Source: Escherichia coli
GTDB lineage: Bacteria; Pseudomonadota; Gammaproteobacteria; Enterobacterales; Enterobacteriaceae
Length of the DNA stretch: 64,000 nt
Reading direction: 5' to 3' (one strand)
Assembly (NCBI RefSeq): GCF_009931435.1
Contig: NZ_CP043414.1
Under the pieces are notes generated by a model that did no database searches, was not told the DNA's origin, and worked only from the letters and a program-made list of their open reading frames with translations. The position numbers and the translations under genes were made by a program. Each line of letters starts with the position of its first letter. Position 1 is the stretch's first letter. Below, in pieces: positions 4,088-26,647 of the stretch.

Positions 4088-5315
4088 ACATGTATTCCCG
4101 GTGAAAAAAGACAAAACCCCGCGCACCGGAAAGGTGGCGGGGGATTCACGGAGATAATATCTGTCTGAAATTGTTTTTAATCGATGGGATTGTTGCGTAT
4201 TAACATGAAGGAGATCAGGACTTATCCGTTACTGGGTGATCTCCTTCCATGAAAATACGCCGTTATTGTTAAACAGCAGGCTGATTTCTCCGTAAAGGGG
4301 AAAATATTTATCGGCTGCATGATTATCAGGTGTGTCTGTGTTTACTGCTGTGAGTATTTTTCAGTGTATTGTGGGGGAGATGTCAGTGGGAGATATTAAA
4401 TTTACATTTATAATTATCTTACTTCTTCTGTGTGTTTTTTATAAGAGTGCACACGTAATGATATCTGTTGATACCATGTGGTTAAGTGTTTCCCTTCCTG
4501 GTCATGCGTAATGATTAAATGCTTTTGTGACACCATTCTTCCGGTCTGAATATTTATCCCGTTCTTTTTTATTTGTGCAGTGATACTGTCGGAAGAGAAT
4601 TCAGTAATGTGAGGTGTCCTGGTCAGGATAATATCTGCTGAGATATTATTAGTTGAGTGTGTTTTTACTGAGCAAAAGCTGGCTTTTAATTCCTGTACTG
4701 AAACGCTGTTGCTCGTCCGGGGTTAACTGAAACTGGATGATGATGTAAAATGAAGGCTGTTTTTGTGTTTGTCGAAGAAGTGTTATTTTAATCCATTCTC
4801 ATCATTGGCTGGCGATTATACAGAAGTATTTGAAGAAAAAATGGTGCATTTTATCTGCGTCAGCAGGGAGGAAGTATTTTATTGATGTATCAGTATTAAA
4901 TGGTTTTTGTTATTTAGAAATATGTCATCCTGTCCATAGAATATTGTACTCAGCATTCAGTGCAGGAACTGTAGTCTTCTTTATTTTATTCTTCTTCAGG
5001 AGGGGGGATTCCTGAAGGCGTTATTCCCGGTGTTCTGTTTATGATTCATCCCGGCAGGAAACCGGTATCTGCAATACCCGGGATGATGCTTTTTGTTCGT
5101 ACGTGGTTGTGTAAAATTTGAATAGTGGATGTGCTCTGAAGGGAAGGAGGGGACACACAGATTCATTTTGTCTTTCTTCAGCAGCAAAACACACTGTGGT
5201 TATTATTTAACCATTAAATCAACAAAAATTTTTACCTCATATTGATTTGACTGCTATTTTTGCTATTAATAGCCAGAATTGCAGTACTTTTATATCTGTG
5301 TGTAGTGAGGTTACT

Positions 5316-6800
5316 ATGTCATTCGGTCAGCCTTGTGATGAGTTTCCCCTGAGTTCGCTGCCTCCACTCATTCGTGATGCCGTTATTGAAGCTCAGCAAA
5401 TTACGCAGGCTCCCCTTGGGCTTGTGGCAGCGTCTGCCCTGGGCGCTGTTTCACTTGTCTGCCAGAATCTGATTGATGTCTGCAGACTGAATACACTGCG
5501 GGGGCCGGTCTCTCTTTTTTTCCTGACGCTTGCCGAGTCCGGAGAACGAAAAATCGCAGTGGACAAATTATTAATGAAGCCCCTGTATCAGCAGGAGATG
5601 CAGTTATATTCCAGATACAAAAGTGAACTGGCTGTCTGGAAAAACAAGGAAGAGCTTTTAAAGGCTCAGAAAAAAGCATTGTTGTCAAAACTGAATAAAG
5701 AACTCCGCAAAGGAGCGGATGAGTCAGAAACCCTCAGACAACTGGAAGTACTTCAGAAAAACAGTGCGGAAGAACCTGTGAGGTATAAATTCATTTTTAA
5801 TGATGCCACGACTGCGGCAATTAAGAATCAGCTTTGTGGTAAATGGCGTTCAGTGGGTATTATGTCAGATGAAGCCGGTATTATATTTGATGGATATACC
5901 CTGTCTGAGTTGCCATTTATTAACAAAATGTGGGATGGCTCTGTATTGTCTGTGGACAGAAAGAATGAACCCGAACAGATGATTGAAAATGCCAGAATGA
6001 CGTTATCCCTCATGGTGCAACCCGGTCTTTTTGACCGATATATGGAGCGAAAAGGTTCTGTTGCCAGGGACAGTGGTTTTCTTGCCCGTTGTCTTATCAG
6101 TAAACCTGCAACCACGCAGGGGAAACGCTTTATTAACGGAGCTGTGATTCCGGGAGGATCATTAACGGCATTTCATGAACGATTAATGGAACTGGCCAGA
6201 GGCAGTATTGAAAAATCCAGTGAGGATGAACGGTATTGTCTGCATTTTTCGCCTGAAGCGCAAAAAATATTTATTGAGCACTATAATGTTCTGGAGCAGG
6301 ATTTATCTCCCTCCGGTCCGTTAAGTGCGTTTCGGGGACATGTTTCAAAAAAAACAGAAAACATTGCAAGAATTGCAGCGTTATTTCAGTATTTCAGCTA
6401 TGGTGAAGGGAAAATCTCTGCCGATATCATGACGTCTGCTGTCGTAATAAGTTCGTGGTACACAGATGAATATAAAAAATTATTTGCGTTACCTGATGAA
6501 TCTGAACTGCAGCAGAAGGACGCCGAGGAGCTGTTCGACTGGCTCATTGAGGAGTGCCGCGGAGAATGCCCACCCCGTGTCAGGAAAAATTATATTCTCC
6601 AGTGTGGCCCGGGTCGGTTCAGAAACAGGAAAAAACTGAACGCATTGCTGAACATTCTTGAATCTCAGTTCAGGCTTTCTGTCGTGCCGGAAGGAAAAAC
6701 CATGTATGTTCTGCTTCCCCAGATAGCCAGTTTAAAGTTGTCTGATGTCTCTGGTATTTTTACCTCGGGTTATCACTACAATAAGCTGAGAGCGAAGTAA
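5316..6800 (+). CDS. Large island protein, tentatively DUF3987 / YfjI-like (prophage replication-associated protein of unknown function)
   Basis: 494 aa from ATG 5316 preceded by GTGAGG Shine-Dalgarno; motifs recalled from the DUF3987 family (MSDEAG, GSVLSVDRK, LMVQPG, GFLARCL); no P-loop visible; family assignment from memory only. Confidence 0.55.
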   Translation: MSFGQPCDEFPLSSLPPLIRDAVIEAQQITQAPLGLVAASALGAVSLVCQNLIDVCRLNTLRGPVSLFFLTLAESGERKIAVDKLLMKPLYQQEMQLYSRYKSELAVWKNKEELLKAQKKALLSKLNKELRKGADESETLRQLEVLQKNSAEEPVRYKFIFNDATTAAIKNQLCGKWRSVGIMSDEAGIIFDGYTLSELPFINKMWDGSVLSVDRKNEPEQMIENARMTLSLMVQPGLFDRYMERKGSVARDSGFLARCLISKPATTQGKRFINGAVIPGGSLTAFHERLMELARGSIEKSSEDERYCLHFSPEAQKIFIEHYNVLEQDLSPSGPLSAFRGHVSKKTENIARIAALFQYFSYGEGKISADIMTSAVVISSWYTDEYKKLFALPDESELQQKDAEELFDWLIEECRGECPPRVRKNYILQCGPGRFRNRKKLNALLNILESQFRLSVVPEGKTMYVLLPQIASLKLSDVSGIFTSGYHYNKLRAK

Positions 6801-6859
6801 CCGGTGAGCAGTTTTTCTCCATTATGCTTCAGACTTAGATGATTGATTATTATGGGGAT

Positions 6860-6899
6860 TTCATCACCGATATTCAGATGTATGAATATCGGTGATGAA
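6860..6899. repeat. Perfect inverted repeat (17 bp arms, 6 nt loop) between convergent genes; possible bidirectional terminator or protein-binding palindrome
   Basis: ttcatcaccgatattca / gatgta / tgaatatcggtgatgaa read directly; no U-tract on either side. Confidence 0.5.
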
Positions 6900-7121
6900 C
6901 TAAAGCTCAGGAGTTGCGTGGTGGTGATGAATCAACAGGCATATAACTGATACCCGCCGGTCAGAAGTTCCAGCCTGCGACTTTCCTGTCTGCGTGCCCG
7001 CAGTCCGGCGTTCAGGTGCAGCGTGTGACAGAACGCACGGAGAGCGAAACGGCAGGCAGACAGGCTGTTCAGTCAGCCCTGGCACCCTGCCCGGATACCA
7101 GCTTCCCTGAAACAACTGGCA

Positions 7122-7730
7122 TCAGGTGCGCTTATCGTCAACCGTTGTGCGGTATGCCAGGAGCACGTACTGATCCATCAGATCCGTCAGTGCTGCGCTC
7201 TGCTTCTGACGGTTGATGATCCATTCCTCCAGCTCTTTTTCTGATTTCCGTTTCAGATTCTCCGTCCAGTCGTCAAGGCAGTTTCCGGTCATTAAATCAA
7301 GCCAGCAAAGCCAGACCAGTTTGAGGCGCAACTCCGTGCCACCAAACTGACGGAAGAGGCTGATCAGTTTATTTGCCAGCGAACGCTGCCTCAGACGTTC
7401 ACATTCAGACAGGAGAATGCCTTCCAGCATCGGATGATGAACCAGCAGATGTTCACTGGTGCATAAATTCACTATCAGATCATCATCCAGGGGCGGCGTG
7501 GTCCGTTTGTCCGGACCATAAATCAGCCGGTGCAGACTCTGGGGTACGATGGCAATCTCCGGTTTTTCACCATTGAATGACACCCACCCGGGCGTCAGAT
7601 TATGGAAGTAGTAGATATTCGGATGACACACGCCCCAGGATACGGCGTGCCGGGTGAAGCCGGTCAGCCATTTCTGGTAGCTTTCGTGGAGCAGCTCGTA
7701 ACGGGTCTGATACTGTGGTTTCATTTTCAT
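7122..7730 (-). CDS. Hypothetical protein (202 aa) downstream of alpA on the same strand
   Basis: ORF 7122..7871; internal ATG at 7730 (MKMKPQYQ...) has a GAGGAA Shine-Dalgarno 6 nt upstream; no family recognised. Confidence 0.5.
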   Translation of the reverse strand: MKMKPQYQTRYELLHESYQKWLTGFTRHAVSWGVCHPNIYYFHNLTPGWVSFNGEKPEIAIVPQSLHRLIYGPDKRTTPPLDDDLIVNLCTSEHLLVHHPMLEGILLSECERLRQRSLANKLISLFRQFGGTELRLKLVWLCWLDLMTGNCLDDWTENLKRKSEKELEEWIINRQKQSAALTDLMDQYVLLAYRTTVDDKRT

Positions 7731-7810
7731 ATTCCTCACGGGAGATAACAGGCAGCAGAACGCCGCCGGCAGGCCGGAGACTGCGTCTGCTGCAGATGAA
7801 CGGTTAAGAA

Positions 7811-8017
7811 TTACGGACGGGACTGTGCAATACGCGCCTGCAGCCAGGCTTCCACTTCGCTTTTCAGCCATCGGGAGCTGCGGCCCATTTTGATGGGCGC
7901 AGGAAAGTCACCATCCTTGATGAGTTTGTAAAACCACTTATCGGTCAGGCCGGTCAGTTGAGTGATAAATGCCATGTCGACCATCTGGTCATCCATCAGT
8001 GAAACTGGGGTGATCAT
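7811..8017 (-). CDS. alpA: AlpA-family prophage transcriptional regulator (MerR-like HTH)
   Basis: MITPVSLMDDQMVDMAFITQLTGLTDKWFYKLIKDG...RWLKSEVEAWL pattern typical of the AlpA family; ATG 8017 preceded by GAGGAA. Confidence 0.75.
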   Translation of the reverse strand: MITPVSLMDDQMVDMAFITQLTGLTDKWFYKLIKDGDFPAPIKMGRSSRWLKSEVEAWLQARIAQSRP

Positions 8018-8563
8018 GAGAATGTTCCTCCGGATGTTGTTAAACCAGCCGGTGTGGTCATGAAAACAACGCACCACCTTCACCGGCATAACAACCGGGG
8101 AGAAACGTAAAAAATAATCGGGAATGTGACCGCCAGGAGATAAACGGGGAGGTTACGGTGGCTGAGCCGTACCGGTATGCCGGGTGGTTGTTACGAAACG
8201 ATGCTTCCGCACGCGCGCGCGATAAAGAAGGGATGATTTTCGTGAGGAAGAGGGGAAAACTGGCGTTCTGATAATTGCAGAGTTATTTACGGGGCGGTTA
8301 CGATGGGGCAGACCGTGTCCGGTGGGCAGGCGACAGGTATCACCGATGGGATAAGACTGTCTGATTGGTATTATAAATATATAAGAGAGATCAAACACAT
8401 GAGATCAAATACATGAGTTCATATATGTGAAATAAACACGGTGAGTGTGATCAGTGGGCATGATGAGAACGCAGTAGCAACAGACTGCGCTATCCCTGAT
8501 AGCTGGCGTATAACCTGCGTATATAAAACGTACCAGCAACGCACGTGAACAGAGTGCATTAAG

Positions 8564-8579
8564 CATCCGTCGTTGACAC
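8564..8579. repeat. 16 nt identical to the IS100 right terminal repeat (catccgtcgttgacac); solo IS21-family end remnant
   Basis: Exact match to 25513-25528 plus flanking c of the IS100 copy in this window. Confidence 0.5.
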
Positions 8580-9329
8580 CGACCTGGTGAGTGACAGTCT
8601 GAGAGACCGGTTAAGTGGTGGTACGGGAGTAATGAGTTTGGGGTGGGTACCAGAATGCCAGTCTGGCGGTATGCTGACAGTATCACGTTAATTGCAGCAT
8701 AAAGTGATGAGAGGCTAATGGAAGTTAAAACCAGAGCAGTTCCGTCGTTGTTCATCCCGGGAGACGCTGGAAAAAGTGATTTCCCACACGCGTTATAAGC
8801 TTACTCCAGCGGAGATGGAAGCCTTCAACTCTGCGGTCGATCACCGACTGGCAGAACTGACAATGAACAAGCTTTACGATCGTGTTCCCGCTTCAGTCTG
8901 GAAATATGTCATCTGAGCGTTCGGTAATCACAACTGCATCGCGCCAGGTGTTATCCGCTTTGTGATTCTTATTGGCTCTTCTCAGGTTATTAAAAGCTGA
9001 ATATGTTCCTGTTGTCGGGAACCAGGATAATACCGGGAGCGTTAAGCGGTATAGCGACAACAAAGAATTCGAAATCAAAAGGGAATGGTGCCGGAGGCGT
9101 GGGCGGTAATAGGCTGATTTTCAGGTATTACCGGCTTACAACGTGTGGTTGATATTGAGGGGCTGTGAGTTTCGCGTATTTGTCAGAAACCCAGATGAGT
9201 TTTCCTGTATGGGACGAAATAAGGCAGCGGCAATACCTGGAAAATTTAATATGGTATGAAGGAGAACCTGTCGGTTACGCTTAATATACACGGTACACTG
9301 TCAGCTCAGGGGATACATGAACCGTTATC

Positions 9330-9539
9330 TCACCAGCTACACAGTATACACACACTGACGCTGACAGTAGTCAGCAGGACCACAATAATCAGCGCCAGCA
9401 GTATGGTAACGATACGGTCTGTATTCCGGTAGTAGCCGAAGGGGTCGACAGAACCACAATACGGGCAACACACTGTATTATTAGTAATCGCGTTTCCACA
9501 GTCCCTGCACTTCTTTTGCGTATCACCATAACTCCCTCC
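9330..9539 (-). pseudogene. Small zinc-ribbon plus transmembrane-helix protein, apparently frameshifted
   Basis: ATG at 9529 with strong GAGGAGGGAG Shine-Dalgarno opens a 46-codon frame; the -1 frame encodes CRDCGNAITNNTVCCPYCGS followed by a hydrophobic helix (IVTILLALIIVVLLTTVSVSV) but lacks a start codon. Confidence 0.4.
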
Positions 9540-9727
9540 TCACAGCCTTACCCGTAACCGGTTTTTTACATTAAAAAACAACGCTGAAAATTCAACCGTC
9601 AGTCCGGAGACGACCGTTCGGGTTATCACAGAGTGCCTGAGACAGTGTCCTGCCGGAGGTCACTTCAGGGACTCTGCGCATTTTTTACGACGTGGCTATT
9701 CCGTATGAACCATACGGAGATTTAACC

Positions 9728-10297
9728 ATGACCTACAAATACAACCCCTTCTGGCAGCAACGTATTCGTGAGACGGTGCGGCACGCACTGAATGTTCATC
9801 CCCGCCTGACGGCATTGCGGGTTGACCTGCGTCTCCCGGATGTACCGGCAGCAACGGACGCAGCTGTGATATCCCGCTTCATCAATGCCCTGAAAGCCCG
9901 AATCGACGCTTACCAGAAACGTAAGCATCGGGAAGGTAAACGCGTGCATCCCACCACCCTGCATTACGTCTGGGCCCGGGAGTTTGGGGAGTTCAAAGGT
10001 AAAAAACACTATCACCTGATGCTGCTGGTCAACCGGGATACCTGGTGTCGTGCCGGTGATTACCGCGCTCCGGAGTCTCTGGCCGGGATGATTAAACAGG
10101 CGTGGTGCAGTGCCCTGGGAGTGGATGTCGGGTGCCATGCCACGCTGGTGCATTTTCCGGCCTGGCCGGCGGTGTGGCTGGCGCGTAATGATGACACCGG
10201 CTTTCAGCAGGTGCTGGAACGTGCTAACTATCTGGCGAAGGAGCATACCAAAGCTCACTGCACCGGTGAGCGCAACTTTGGCTGCAGTCGTGGCTGA
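9728..10297 (+). CDS. HUH-type rolling-circle Rep-like protein (YagK/YfjJ / inovirus gp2-like family)
   Basis: HUH motif KKHYHLML and YxxK motif (NYLAKE) near the C-terminus; ATG 9728 with GGAG Shine-Dalgarno embedded in an 8 bp palindrome (9700-9718). Confidence 0.65.
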   Translation: MTYKYNPFWQQRIRETVRHALNVHPRLTALRVDLRLPDVPAATDAAVISRFINALKARIDAYQKRKHREGKRVHPTTLHYVWAREFGEFKGKKHYHLMLLVNRDTWCRAGDYRAPESLAGMIKQAWCSALGVDVGCHATLVHFPAWPAVWLARNDDTGFQQVLERANYLAKEHTKAHCTGERNFGCSRG

Positions 10298-10462
10298 GCC
10301 AGACAGACGAGTTATCTGACTTCAGTGTGATGACGTGTTCACGGCCACCACACTGATTTTCCCTTATGAGACTGAACTGAAACCGCCATTCACACCTGAC
10401 CACGCTGCCCGTACCGGGACGGCTGTTGCCTGCGTGTCGTCTGACGGTAAGGAACATATACT

Positions 10463-10855
10463 ATGTACGCAAAATCCTTTCTCGCTCTTGATGGCAACGG
10501 ACGTCTGACGGGCGCCCGTACAGCACAGGCCGCACCTTATGCTCACTACACCTGCCACTTGTGTGGCAGTGCACTCAGATACCATCCGCAATACGACACT
10601 GAACTTCCCTGGTTTGAACACACTGACGACAGGCTGACAGAGCACGGTCAACAGTGCCCTTATGTCAGGCCGGAGCGCAGAGAAATACAGTTGATTAAAC
10701 GTCTGCAGCAATTCGTACCGGATGCCTTACCCGTGGTGCGTAAAGCCAGCTGGCACTGCAGACAATGTCACCACGATTATTATGGGGAGCGGTACTGCAC
10801 ACACTGCCAGACCGGAGGTTTCAGTCTTCCCCGGACAGCTCAGCAACTGTCTTGA
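10463..10855 (+). CDS. Uncharacterised zinc-ribbon protein (paralog 1), CxxC pairs and PWFEH motif
   Basis: 130 aa; CHLC ... PWFEH ... CRQC-x10-CTHC; AAGGAA Shine-Dalgarno upstream; paralogous to 12019..12423. Confidence 0.6.
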   Translation: MYAKSFLALDGNGRLTGARTAQAAPYAHYTCHLCGSALRYHPQYDTELPWFEHTDDRLTEHGQQCPYVRPERREIQLIKRLQQFVPDALPVVRKASWHCRQCHHDYYGERYCTHCQTGGFSLPRTAQQLS

Positions 10856-10864
10856 ACGTAAAAA

Positions 10865-11833
<969 letters not shown>

Positions 11834-12005
11834 GATTACCCATCCTTGCAAATGCGTTATGGCGTACTGACAACTGTTCGGGTTTCAGATGAGTGGCTCA
11901 GTGTATGCGCCATTCGCTGAGCTACGGGCTATGAACCCCTTGAGGGATCGGGCTGCATACACCTTGCCAAATCTAATCACAGTTATTTTAACCAATTGTC
12001 AAGAT
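11834..12005 (-). ncRNA. Candidate IS110-family bridge-RNA region (structured 5' non-coding arm); hypothesis only
   Basis: 8 bp stem (11901-11908 with 11955-11962) enclosing a smaller hairpin; TTGACA hexamer on the minus strand at 12002..11997; analogy to IS621-type elements. Confidence 0.25.
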
Positions 12006-12018
12006 ACAAGGAGGAGAT

Positions 12019-12423
12019 ATGCGAATTCTGAACTGCTATATGGCGAATGACAGCAAAGGCCATTTTGTTACGGCGAAAGAAGCCGCGAAGAACAACCGAC
12101 AGGACGTTTTGTGCTGTGTGTCCTGTGGTTGTCCGTTAACACTTAAGCGGGGCAATGACGGACAACCGCCGTGGTTTGAACATGACCAGATGACTGTTGC
12201 TGCGAAAATCCTGCTGCGATGCACCTGGCTTGACCCGGCAGAGAAAGAGGCCCGTCGTTTGCATCTGCAGGGCATGACGGTTCCGGATTATACGGTGAAG
12301 GTGAGAAAGTGGTTTTGTGTGATGTGTGACGAAGATTATGAGGGGGAAAAGTGCTGCCCGCGTTGTGGTACCGGGGTATACAGCAGGGATAGGGGGGCTG
12401 CAGGAGGGCAACTGGAAGGATAG
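12019..12423 (+). CDS. Uncharacterised zinc-ribbon protein (paralog 2)
   Basis: 134 aa; CCVSCGC ... PPWFEH ... CVMC-x9-CCPRC; strong AGGAGGA Shine-Dalgarno; same architecture as 10463..10855. Confidence 0.6.
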   Translation: MRILNCYMANDSKGHFVTAKEAAKNNRQDVLCCVSCGCPLTLKRGNDGQPPWFEHDQMTVAAKILLRCTWLDPAEKEARRLHLQGMTVPDYTVKVRKWFCVMCDEDYEGEKCCPRCGTGVYSRDRGAAGGQLEG

Positions 12424-12617
12424 GAACTGAGCGGTTCAGTCGCGGAAATCAGTTGCAGAGCTGTAATGATATCTCCGGGAGTGCTGCGTTGGTAGGGGCA
12501 TCCCGGGATAGAGAAATTTTAGCACTTTGCCCTGAATGATTGTAGACGTCCCGAGTACTCGTACCGGCCTGAGTTATTACAGTTAGATATTCGCTTTTTC
12601 TCCCGCATACTTCACAG

Positions 12618-12639
12618 CTGTCAACGACGGATGAAAAGT
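12618..12639. repeat. 22 nt identical to the IS100 right terminal repeat (tgtcaacgacggatgaaaagtg), opposite orientation to the 8564 copy
   Basis: Exact match to the reverse complement of 25507-25528; the following sequence is not IS100 interior. Confidence 0.55.
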
Positions 12640-12713
12640 GGTTCTTCCGCAACTTGGGTGGAAGAAAATGGATGAAACTTTCTGGTGAACAAAGATCTAA
12701 GCTGATTTAAGTT

Positions 12714-13375
12714 ATGGGCAACGCAATGCACTCTCTTAAGACACTTTTAAAGTTACCTTGCGGATGGCGATGCAGTCGACAAATTATTAGCTCTGACGGT
12801 ATAACCCTCCATCTCCACGGAAAACGCAAAACAGCACAATGTCCTGAATGCTTTAAGCGTAGCGACTCTGTTCATAGTTGTCGTCGGCGCCGGATACAGC
12901 ATCTACCCTGCTCAGGGCAGACGCTATGGCTTGTATTTTCCGTCCGCCACTGGTACTGCCGTAACCCGGCTTGTTCACGTAAAATTTTTGCCGAGTCGCT
13001 TGCTCCCTTCGCCAGTTCACACCAGCAGTCTTCACAGGCGTTACAAAATTAACAACGTCAACTGGGATTAATAGCTGGAGGTGAGGCTGGAAAACGGGCT
13101 GCAACGGCAGCGGGTCTCCGTTGCAGTGCTGATACTCTTCTTCGCAGGCTTATCAATACCCCGGAGACGAAACAGTCAGGCGCGCCTCATGTCGGTATTG
13201 ATGAGTGGGCGTGGCATTGGGGCCACCGTTACGGTACGTTAATATTCAATCTTGATACTCACCGCCCCCTGGTCCTGCTTCCCGGCCGTGATCAGCGTAC
13301 GCTGGCGACCTGGTTCAGAAAAGGTCCGGAAATACAGGTTGTATCGCGTGATCGCAGTGGAGTCTATGCGACAGC
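12714..13375 (+). pseudogene. ISL3-family transposase remnant (zf-ISL3 N-terminus, frameshifted, 3' end cut by IS600)
   Basis: N-terminal CPEC...HLPCSGQ...RHWYCRNPACSRKIFAESL pattern; downstream frames encode GIDEWAWHWGHRYGTLIFNL and VSRDRSGVYATAE in shifted frames. Confidence 0.6.
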
Positions 13376-19602: not shown

Positions 19603-19678
19603 TGGCTCCTCTGACTGGACTCGAACCAGTGACATACGGATTAACAGTCCGCCGTTCTACCGACTGAACTACAGAGGA
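19603..19678 (-). tRNA. asnV: tRNA-Asn (GUU)
   Basis: Exact 76 nt tRNA-Asn sequence, reverse complement. Confidence 0.95.
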
Positions 19679-22011: not shown

Positions 22012-22087
22012 TGGCTCCTCTGACTGGACTCGAACCAGTGACATACGGATTAACAGTCCGCCGTTCTACCGACTGAACTACAGAGGA
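22012..22087 (-). tRNA. asnU: tRNA-Asn (GUU)
   Basis: Exact tRNA-Asn sequence, reverse complement. Confidence 0.95.
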
Positions 22088-26571: not shown

Positions 26572-26647
26572 TCCTCTGTAGTTCAGTCGGTAGAACGGCG
26601 GACTGTTAATCCGTATGTCACTGGTTCGAGTCCAGTCAGAGGAGCCA
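26572..26647 (+). tRNA. asnW: tRNA-Asn (GUU)
   Basis: Exact tRNA-Asn sequence. Confidence 0.95.

Follow-up and report, generated by a model that had tools for sequence, protein, structure and literature searches.

The window analyzed here is a 64,000-nucleotide stretch of Escherichia coli DNA (contig NZ_CP043414.1), and the locus of interest lies on its minus strand between a truncated hha-like pseudogene and a gene of the inovirus Gp2 family. The features referred to below are, in the order in which they are met along the minus strand:

9728 to 10297, plus strand: inovirus Gp2 family (YagK/YfjJ-like) gene, divergent from the small gene (from the open reading frame list and syntenic annotation)
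9561 to 9579, minus strand: perfect palindrome GTTTTTTA-ATG-TAAAAAAC, in the conserved leader and divergent promoter region
9532 to 9541, minus strand: Shine-Dalgarno-like GAGGAGGGAG, with two bases (TT) between it and the start codon
9527 to 9529, minus strand: ATG, probable start codon of an ancestral 66-codon gene, now heading a 46-codon out-of-frame reading frame
9389 to 9529, minus strand: 46-codon out-of-frame reading frame, MVIRK followed by unrelated sequence, the probable product of a frameshift
9514 to 9517, minus strand: AAAA run, site of a 1-nt deletion (AAAAA in intact alleles) at ancestral codons 5-6 (from the DNA alignment)
9456 to 9509, minus strand: zinc-ribbon coding remnant C8-x2-C11-x10-C22-x2-C25 (restored numbering), in the -1 frame relative to the ATG
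9333 to 9413, minus strand: remnant of a C-terminal transmembrane helix, IVTILLALIIVVLLTTVSVSVCILCSW, a predicted tail anchor (Kyte-Doolittle, AlphaFold2)
9330 to 9332, minus strand: TGA, probable stop codon of the ancestral gene (from the frame translation)
8737 to 8916, plus strand: truncated hha-like pseudogene (C-terminal part only), convergent with the small gene (mapped from the E2865 annotation); the open reading frame at 8776 to 8916 lies within it

Read directly from the minus strand, GAGGAGGGAG at 9541-9532 is followed by TT and then by ATG at 9529-9527, the position of the annotated start codon of intact RefSeq coding sequences in strains ATCC 11775 and HUSEC2011. The frame of this ATG is open for 46 codons, ends in TGA and translates to MVIRKRSAGTVETRLLIIQCVARIVVLSTPSATTGIQTVSLPYCWR; the same 46-codon frame is seen in an allele of strain CV839-06 with four A's. 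The -1 frame opens at 9539, a TGA occupying 9542-9540, and stays open until another TGA (9332-9330); it reads GGSYGDTQKKCRDCGNAITNNTVCCPYCGSVDPFGYYRNTDRIVTILLALIIVVLLTTVSVSVCILCSW. Its sole start-type codon is a GTG at 9473, inside the ribbon, with no ATG, GTG or TTG between 9539 and that position. This GTG was considered as an alternative start for the ribbon frame and rejected, as it lies past the first CxxC and has no Shine-Dalgarno sequence.

A preliminary description of the locus, made from the sequence alone, had reported the Shine-Dalgarno sequence, the ATG, the 46-codon frame and the start-less -1 frame, all of which are present where it placed them. The zinc ribbon that it described is also there, with ten residues instead of eleven between the two CxxC knuckles (C8, C11, C22 and C25, plus an extra cysteine at position 21), and the hydrophobic helix, given as roughly 23 residues, spans about 26 and reaches the C-terminus.

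The palindrome sits 32-50 nt upstream of ATG 9529 and is conserved across paralog classes, among which the length of the T run varies (T6, T7 or T8). It may serve as an operator or belong to a promoter spacer. Over the divergent intergenic region of roughly 160 nt, conservation is no lower than in the coding sequence, and GAGGAGGGAG is mostly kept in the paralogous copies, with one or two substitutions in three of these. A promoter and terminator consensus scan of positions 9100-9800 returned nothing on the minus strand.

A one-base deletion and its alleles

Positions 9250-9700, used as a megablast query against 5,426 complete E. coli genomes, have matches in 3,544 of these. Where the copy is exact, nothing is annotated; where it is one or two bases longer, a "hypothetical protein" is. 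The DNA alignment contains a single gap in the coding region, with CGC AAAAA GAAG in the intact copies versus CGC AAAA GAAG in the window and in strain E2865, in which the segment under study is 100% identical to that of the window. The intact copies, represented by WP_001297219.1 and WP_001297900.1 (66 residues, "hypothetical protein"), read ATG GTG ATA CGC AAAAA GAAG TGC. Alignment with intact homologs, the check proposed in the preliminary description, thus locates the indel as a single extra A after codon 4 of the intact copies, within the run that forms nucleotides 13-16 of the mRNA in the window (9517-9514).

In ATCC 11775 and HUSEC2011, the coding sequence is 201 nt long and translates to MVIRKKKCRDCGNAITHNTVCCPYCGSVDPFGYYRNTDRIVTILLALIIVVLLTTVSVSV[C/Y]ILCSW. 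Restoring one A to the window yields a single 66-codon open reading frame from ATG 9529, MVIRKKKCRDCG...CILCSW, of the same length as the two RefSeq proteins. The restored protein finds its best database match at E = 2e-35, with 97% identity over 100% of its length, and is 97-98% identical, full length, to WP_001297219.1, WP_001297900.1, WP_001547002.1 and WP_001545803.1 (64-66 residues). Conversely, a tblastn search of the window with the intact protein aligns residues 5-66 in one frame at 98.4% identity.

Alleles were counted as exact matches to allele-specific 65/66-mers in the 5,426 complete genomes, these words also spanning a linked single-nucleotide polymorphism shortly before the ATG, where the window has T and most strains have G. 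The counts are:

A5+G (intact): 2,220 genomes
A5+T (intact): 261 genomes
A4+T (deleted, the allele of the window): 200 genomes
A4+G (deleted): 11 genomes

Intact alleles hence outnumber deleted ones by 2,481 to 211 exact matches, about 12:1, with A5 accounting for about 92%. A4+T is carried by numerous complete assemblies of independent origin, O26:H11 strain 11368 and further O26 strains among them, and is linked to specific flanking polymorphisms.

These counts bear on whether the missing A could be a homopolymer sequencing or assembly error in a genome that truly carries an intact A5 allele. Long-read and 454 assemblies often get the length of homopolymers wrong, and the A4+G haplotype occurs in 11 genomes only. 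However, 200 complete genomes, which come from numerous laboratories and lineages and include many O26:H11 strains, have the exact A4+T 65-mer together with its linked polymorphisms, and a run of four to five bases is short for a systematic error. Such an error is therefore very unlikely; recurrence in many independent complete assemblies indicates that A4 is a real, inherited allele and no one-off artifact. The haplotype of the window (upstream T, AAT at codon 17) also occurs with A5, in strain CFSAN061763, which identifies A4 as the derived state. In CV839-06, A4 is found on the haplotype with upstream G and CAT at codon 17; the run may have lost an A a second time there, or the copy may be recombinant or misassembled.

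The presence of all four combinations of A4 or A5 with upstream T or G, and of A4 on two otherwise different haplotypes, would fit recurrent change, and the run might accordingly be viewed as a reversible on/off switch of the contingency-locus type with A4 as an "off" phase. The tract is only four to five A's long, however, well below the seven to eight or more of known phase-variable homopolymers. Recombination between paralogous islands, as seen in a mosaic copy described below, can produce four haplotypes with no recurrence, and the occurrence of A4+T in 200 genomes looks like descent within lineages. Irreversible losses of the gene occur as well (an insertion sequence fragment, a 29-nt deletion and other frameshifts). 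We regard a reversible switch as improbable.

Positions 9330-9529 very probably derive from a gene of 66 codons, encoding a small, presumably tail-anchored zinc-ribbon protein, and became a pseudogene recently through loss of one A from an A5 run. The preliminary description had favored a small membrane-anchored zinc-ribbon protein gene turned into a pseudogene by a 1-nt indel, and the alignment with intact homologs and the allele counts now bear this out. The loss of one A at codons 5-6 leaves the AAAA run at 9517-9514 as the point at which the start codon parts from the functional frame. Ribosomes would be expected to load at the strong Shine-Dalgarno sequence and ATG 9529 and to read MVIRK and then 41 unrelated codons, making a 46-residue nonsense peptide the sole predicted product of this ribosome-binding site. 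The ribbon and the C-terminal helix would lie beyond the reach of these ribosomes, in a -1 frame that lacks a start codon. In the ancestral protein, the N-terminal ribbon (net charge +4) would bind zinc in the cytoplasm, and the C-terminal helix, as a tail anchor, would tether it to the inner membrane. The deletion in the A run would be one lesion among many in a decaying island crowded with insertion sequence elements and pseudogenes.

Joining of the two frames by programmed -1 frameshifting or by transcriptional slippage at the A run, such that the full protein is still made, was the less favored alternative of the preliminary description. Consistent with this idea, the strong Shine-Dalgarno sequence and ATG are retained, the ribbon frame is undamaged (one codon differs from ATCC 11775 and none from the CFSAN061763 haplotype), and the required -1 shift adjoins the A run, which is followed by the rare codon AGA. 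The arrangement also resembles dnaX and the IS1- and IS3-family transposases in its two overlapping frames, the second of them start-less, with an A-rich junction. Unlike in these systems, there is no slippery heptamer or stimulatory structure, and the two-frame allele is a derived minority. The shift would have to fall within codons 1-7, and a search for slippery motifs there found no X_XXY_YYZ heptamer; for each of codons 1-8, at least one of the first two bases changes in the -1 codon. The downstream 73 nt have a minimum free energy of -16.5 kcal/mol versus a shuffle mean of -15.96 (z = -0.19). Slippage of RNA polymerase is known from runs of about nine or more, for which A4 is too short. 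Finally, about 92% of the genomes matched by the 65/66-mers have an in-frame A5, so the two-frame state is not conserved and most homologs need no shift. Recoding at this site is thus exceedingly unlikely, and the frameshift itself adds nothing new on that subject.

The pseudogene largely escapes annotation. In 60 of the 60 A4 genomes listed, PGAP places no feature over the allele, not even a pseudogene, an example being NC_013361.1 at 2809202-2809266. The gap affects about 200 complete genomes, with O26:H11 Shiga-toxin strains among those listed. The main value of the present finding is therefore one of annotation, a recognizable pseudogene of a protein that is annotated in thousands of other E. 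coli genomes, and the residual interest lies in the intact protein family.

The intact 66-residue protein

To compare substitutions, we used paralogous copies from different island classes, represented by AR_0162, N1229 and 39EVA. Over the first 120 nt, variable columns number 10, 9 and 25 at codon positions 1, 2 and 3 of the zinc-ribbon frame. For codons 1-40, the Nei-Gojobori method gives dN/dS values of 0.12-0.16 when the window-type class is compared with that of AR_0162 or N1229, and 0.31 when the latter two are compared with each other. C8, C11, C21, C22, P23, C25 and the motif GYYR.TDR are invariant in 11 intact homologs, and the zinc-ribbon frame matches proteins of 64-66 residues annotated in other genomes, with E values down to 2e-35. 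From the third-position excess, the dN/dS values and the invariant cysteines, the zinc-ribbon frame is, as far as sequence comparison goes, the selected coding frame, and the 46-codon frame is accidental. The converse possibility, with the 46-codon frame as the conserved product and the ribbon as a chance reading, finds no support: substitutions among the paralogs concentrate at the third positions of the zinc-ribbon frame.

The helix-coding half behaves differently. The nominal dN/dS there exceeds 1 between classes, in a part where the alignment is uncertain, and the sequence is heavily turned over while remaining hydrophobic, with a Kyte-Doolittle maximum of 2.8-3.0 across classes (2.99 for the window, as the maximum 19-residue mean). 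AlphaFold2, run with an 11-sequence alignment, predicts a helix at residues 31-65 with a pLDDT of about 92 over residues 41-60; its model of the ribbon is of low confidence (pLDDT below 50; shallow alignment).

A further reading takes the ribbon and helix frame as a chance one and ascribes the conservation of the region to regulatory DNA of the divergent Gp2-family gene. Literature searches on the gene neighborhood and the RefSeq accessions found nothing specific and no sign that the intact gene is expressed or its protein made, curated families in Pfam and NCBIfam all score below threshold, conservation of the upstream leader matches or exceeds that of the open reading frame, and disruption is frequent. 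The third-position excess (10/9/25) and the ribbon-part dN/dS of 0.12-0.16 argue against it, as do the invariance of the cysteines in intact homologs, the maintenance of helix hydrophobicity despite sequence turnover, the correctly spaced strong Shine-Dalgarno sequence and the occurrence of distant homologs with the same architecture and motifs on unrelated contigs. We therefore give it very little likelihood. Nor was a known antisense or regulatory RNA partner, of the kind that accompanies type I toxin-like small hydrophobic proteins, found at the locus: positions 7000-12000 of the window have no Rfam match at E values up to 1, and no known small RNA or antitoxin RNA was found there.

Island setting and repeated loss

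The module lies in a CP4-44-type island adjoining cobUST and tRNA-Asn genes. This island contains Ag43, a YeeP-like GTPase and many frameshifted or truncated genes, along with IS3, ISL3 and IS110 elements, a frameshifted zinc-ribbon gene and the truncated hha. In this it is like other cryptic prophage-like islands of the CP4-44, CP4-6 and CP4-57 types, where gene decay by small indels is the norm. In 10 of 10 annotated loci from several strains and paralog classes, the small gene is found between a convergent hha-like gene and a divergent inovirus Gp2-family gene; one or two "putative zinc ribbon" genes come next, with a gene for an AlpA-like regulator nearby. At the position of the truncated hha, other islands have intact genes of the Hha/YmoA family. 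Searches of the CP4-6 and CP4-57 regions of K-12 by tblastn and blastn found no copy of the small gene and no named ortholog.

The window is collinear with E2865 in blocks only, including 5847-13375 at 99.1% identity; full collinearity over 24 kb was considered and failed on mapping. Several differences and neighboring features were noted along the way. An IS110-family transposase gene at 10865-11851 (minus strand), just downstream of the "putative zinc ribbon" gene, is one coding sequence of 322 residues in E2865 versus two open reading frames (140 and 165 residues) in the window. The next "zinc-ribbon domain-containing" gene (about 12019-12421, plus strand) is marked as frameshifted in E2865. 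A DUF3987 (YfjI-like) gene at 5247-6800 (plus strand) is a continuous open reading frame of 517 residues in the window, and its E2865 counterpart (L004, 14903-18831) is split by an insertion of ISEc8, of the IS66 family; the window hence comes from a strain other than E2865. Next to the island and cobUST, a stretch of 7 kb contains three tRNA-Asn (GTT) genes, at 19603-19678, 22012-22087 and 26572-26647. Genes for tRNA-Asn are typical integration targets for such islands.

The small gene has been lost by routes other than the A-run deletions of the A4 alleles. In CFSAN061763 (L014, about 1580-1697), an A5 copy is interrupted after codon 19 by a 118-bp fragment with 97-98% identity to an IS1414 (IS256-family) transposase gene elsewhere, and PGAP annotates no feature. 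In E500002 (L006, 1672-1845), a 29-nt deletion removes the second CxxC, and the open reading frame is still called, as a coding sequence of 57 residues. The copy in 39EVA (L008, 1617-1813) has a frameshift in the helix part and is marked as a pseudogene by PGAP; this lesion and that of E500002 arose independently. C-terminal frameshift variants also occur. Repeated loss by several routes fits a dispensable accessory gene in decaying islands, and the frequency and variety of the disruptions suggest that present-day selection on the gene may be weak.

The helix-coding half falls into at least two sequence classes. The copy in strain M8 (L013, 1519-1716) is a mosaic, its 5' half of the window type and its 3' half of the other class, which points to recombination between paralogous islands.

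Relatives of the protein

The E. coli island proteins of 64-66 residues, annotated as hypothetical or "zinc-ribbon domain-containing," share their start, stop, Shine-Dalgarno sequence and position between the hha-like and inovirus Gp2-family genes with the copy in the window. The latter differs in being one A short in the A5 run, which splits the open reading frame and makes it a pseudogene member of this family. The annotation of the intact gene goes no further than "hypothetical protein."

Searched exhaustively with the family profile, 1.84 billion representatives gave only 25 matches at E ≤1e-10, many of them truncated or frameshift-extended versions of the same gene. A word-indexed search returned only Escherichia, Shigella, Salmonella and Klebsiella entries, labeled "hypothetical" or "zinc-ribbon domain-containing." The ancestral E. 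coli gene is thus lineage-restricted, an accessory gene of CP4-type integrative islands in E. coli and close relatives. With the E. coli protein, no curated family in Pfam, NCBIfam, PHROGs or PADLOC reaches its threshold. In Pfam and NCBIfam, the only matches are to generic zinc ribbons below threshold, the restored protein scoring 13.4-13.7 bits against PF13248, PF13240 and PF12773 with cut-offs of 25-27.3. It has no match to DUF2116 (PF09889) at E values up to 1. PADLOC gave nothing meaningful, matches in PHROGs were weak and confined to families of unknown function (best E = 1.6e-5), and a PDB sequence search with the family profile gave only zinc-knuckle matches at chance level.

The weak tail of the profile search contains proteins of 60-80 residues with the pattern CxDCG-x9/10-CxxC-[GS][ST]xDPFG-x3-R-x2-DR and a helix directly after it. 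This distant group keeps the two CxxC knuckles and shares the juxtamembrane DPFG/R..DR motif. Comparison of the E. coli family with the group by hhalign gives a probability of 99.1% over 40 columns, a value to be read with the fact that the same profile had selected those sequences. The distant relatives match DUF2116 ("probable treble clef") at 17.6-23.7 bits, below the gathering threshold of 26.8, and align with it over both ribbon and helix (profile positions 4-57/59, 22-24 bits). The E. coli family likewise has, as in DUF2116, Zn_ribbon_3, Zn_Ribbon_1 and DZR, a CxxC...CxxC knuckle pair at the N-terminus of a protein of about 60 residues. Unlike DUF2116 and the generic zinc ribbons, it has the juxtamembrane motif DPFGYYRNTDR and a tail anchor.

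What can be flagged here is a small tail-anchored zinc-ribbon family with purifying selection in its ribbon part, tight linkage to the Gp2-family gene of CP4-type islands and a thin but real set of relatives, apparently carried by other mobile elements. The wider family of mini-proteins may generally be linked to mobile elements. A bolder proposal would make the intact gene a member of an undescribed superfamily of tail-anchored zinc-ribbon mini-proteins with a membrane role, with the A5 run and the T6-T8 runs of the leader as on/off points; we consider this improbable. If correct, it would imply a role at the membrane in island maintenance, in regulation of the adjacent Gp2-family gene or in phage exclusion, and the A5 and polymorphic T6-T8 runs would be recurrent on/off points, with the window in the "off" state and not in random decay.

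As a separate observation on the distant group, one of its members, P0087, adjoins genes for a PLD-like nuclease and an HTH protein (L011, 4001-4237; Logan SRR12667847), and the same contig also bears a DotM-like type IV secretion gene.
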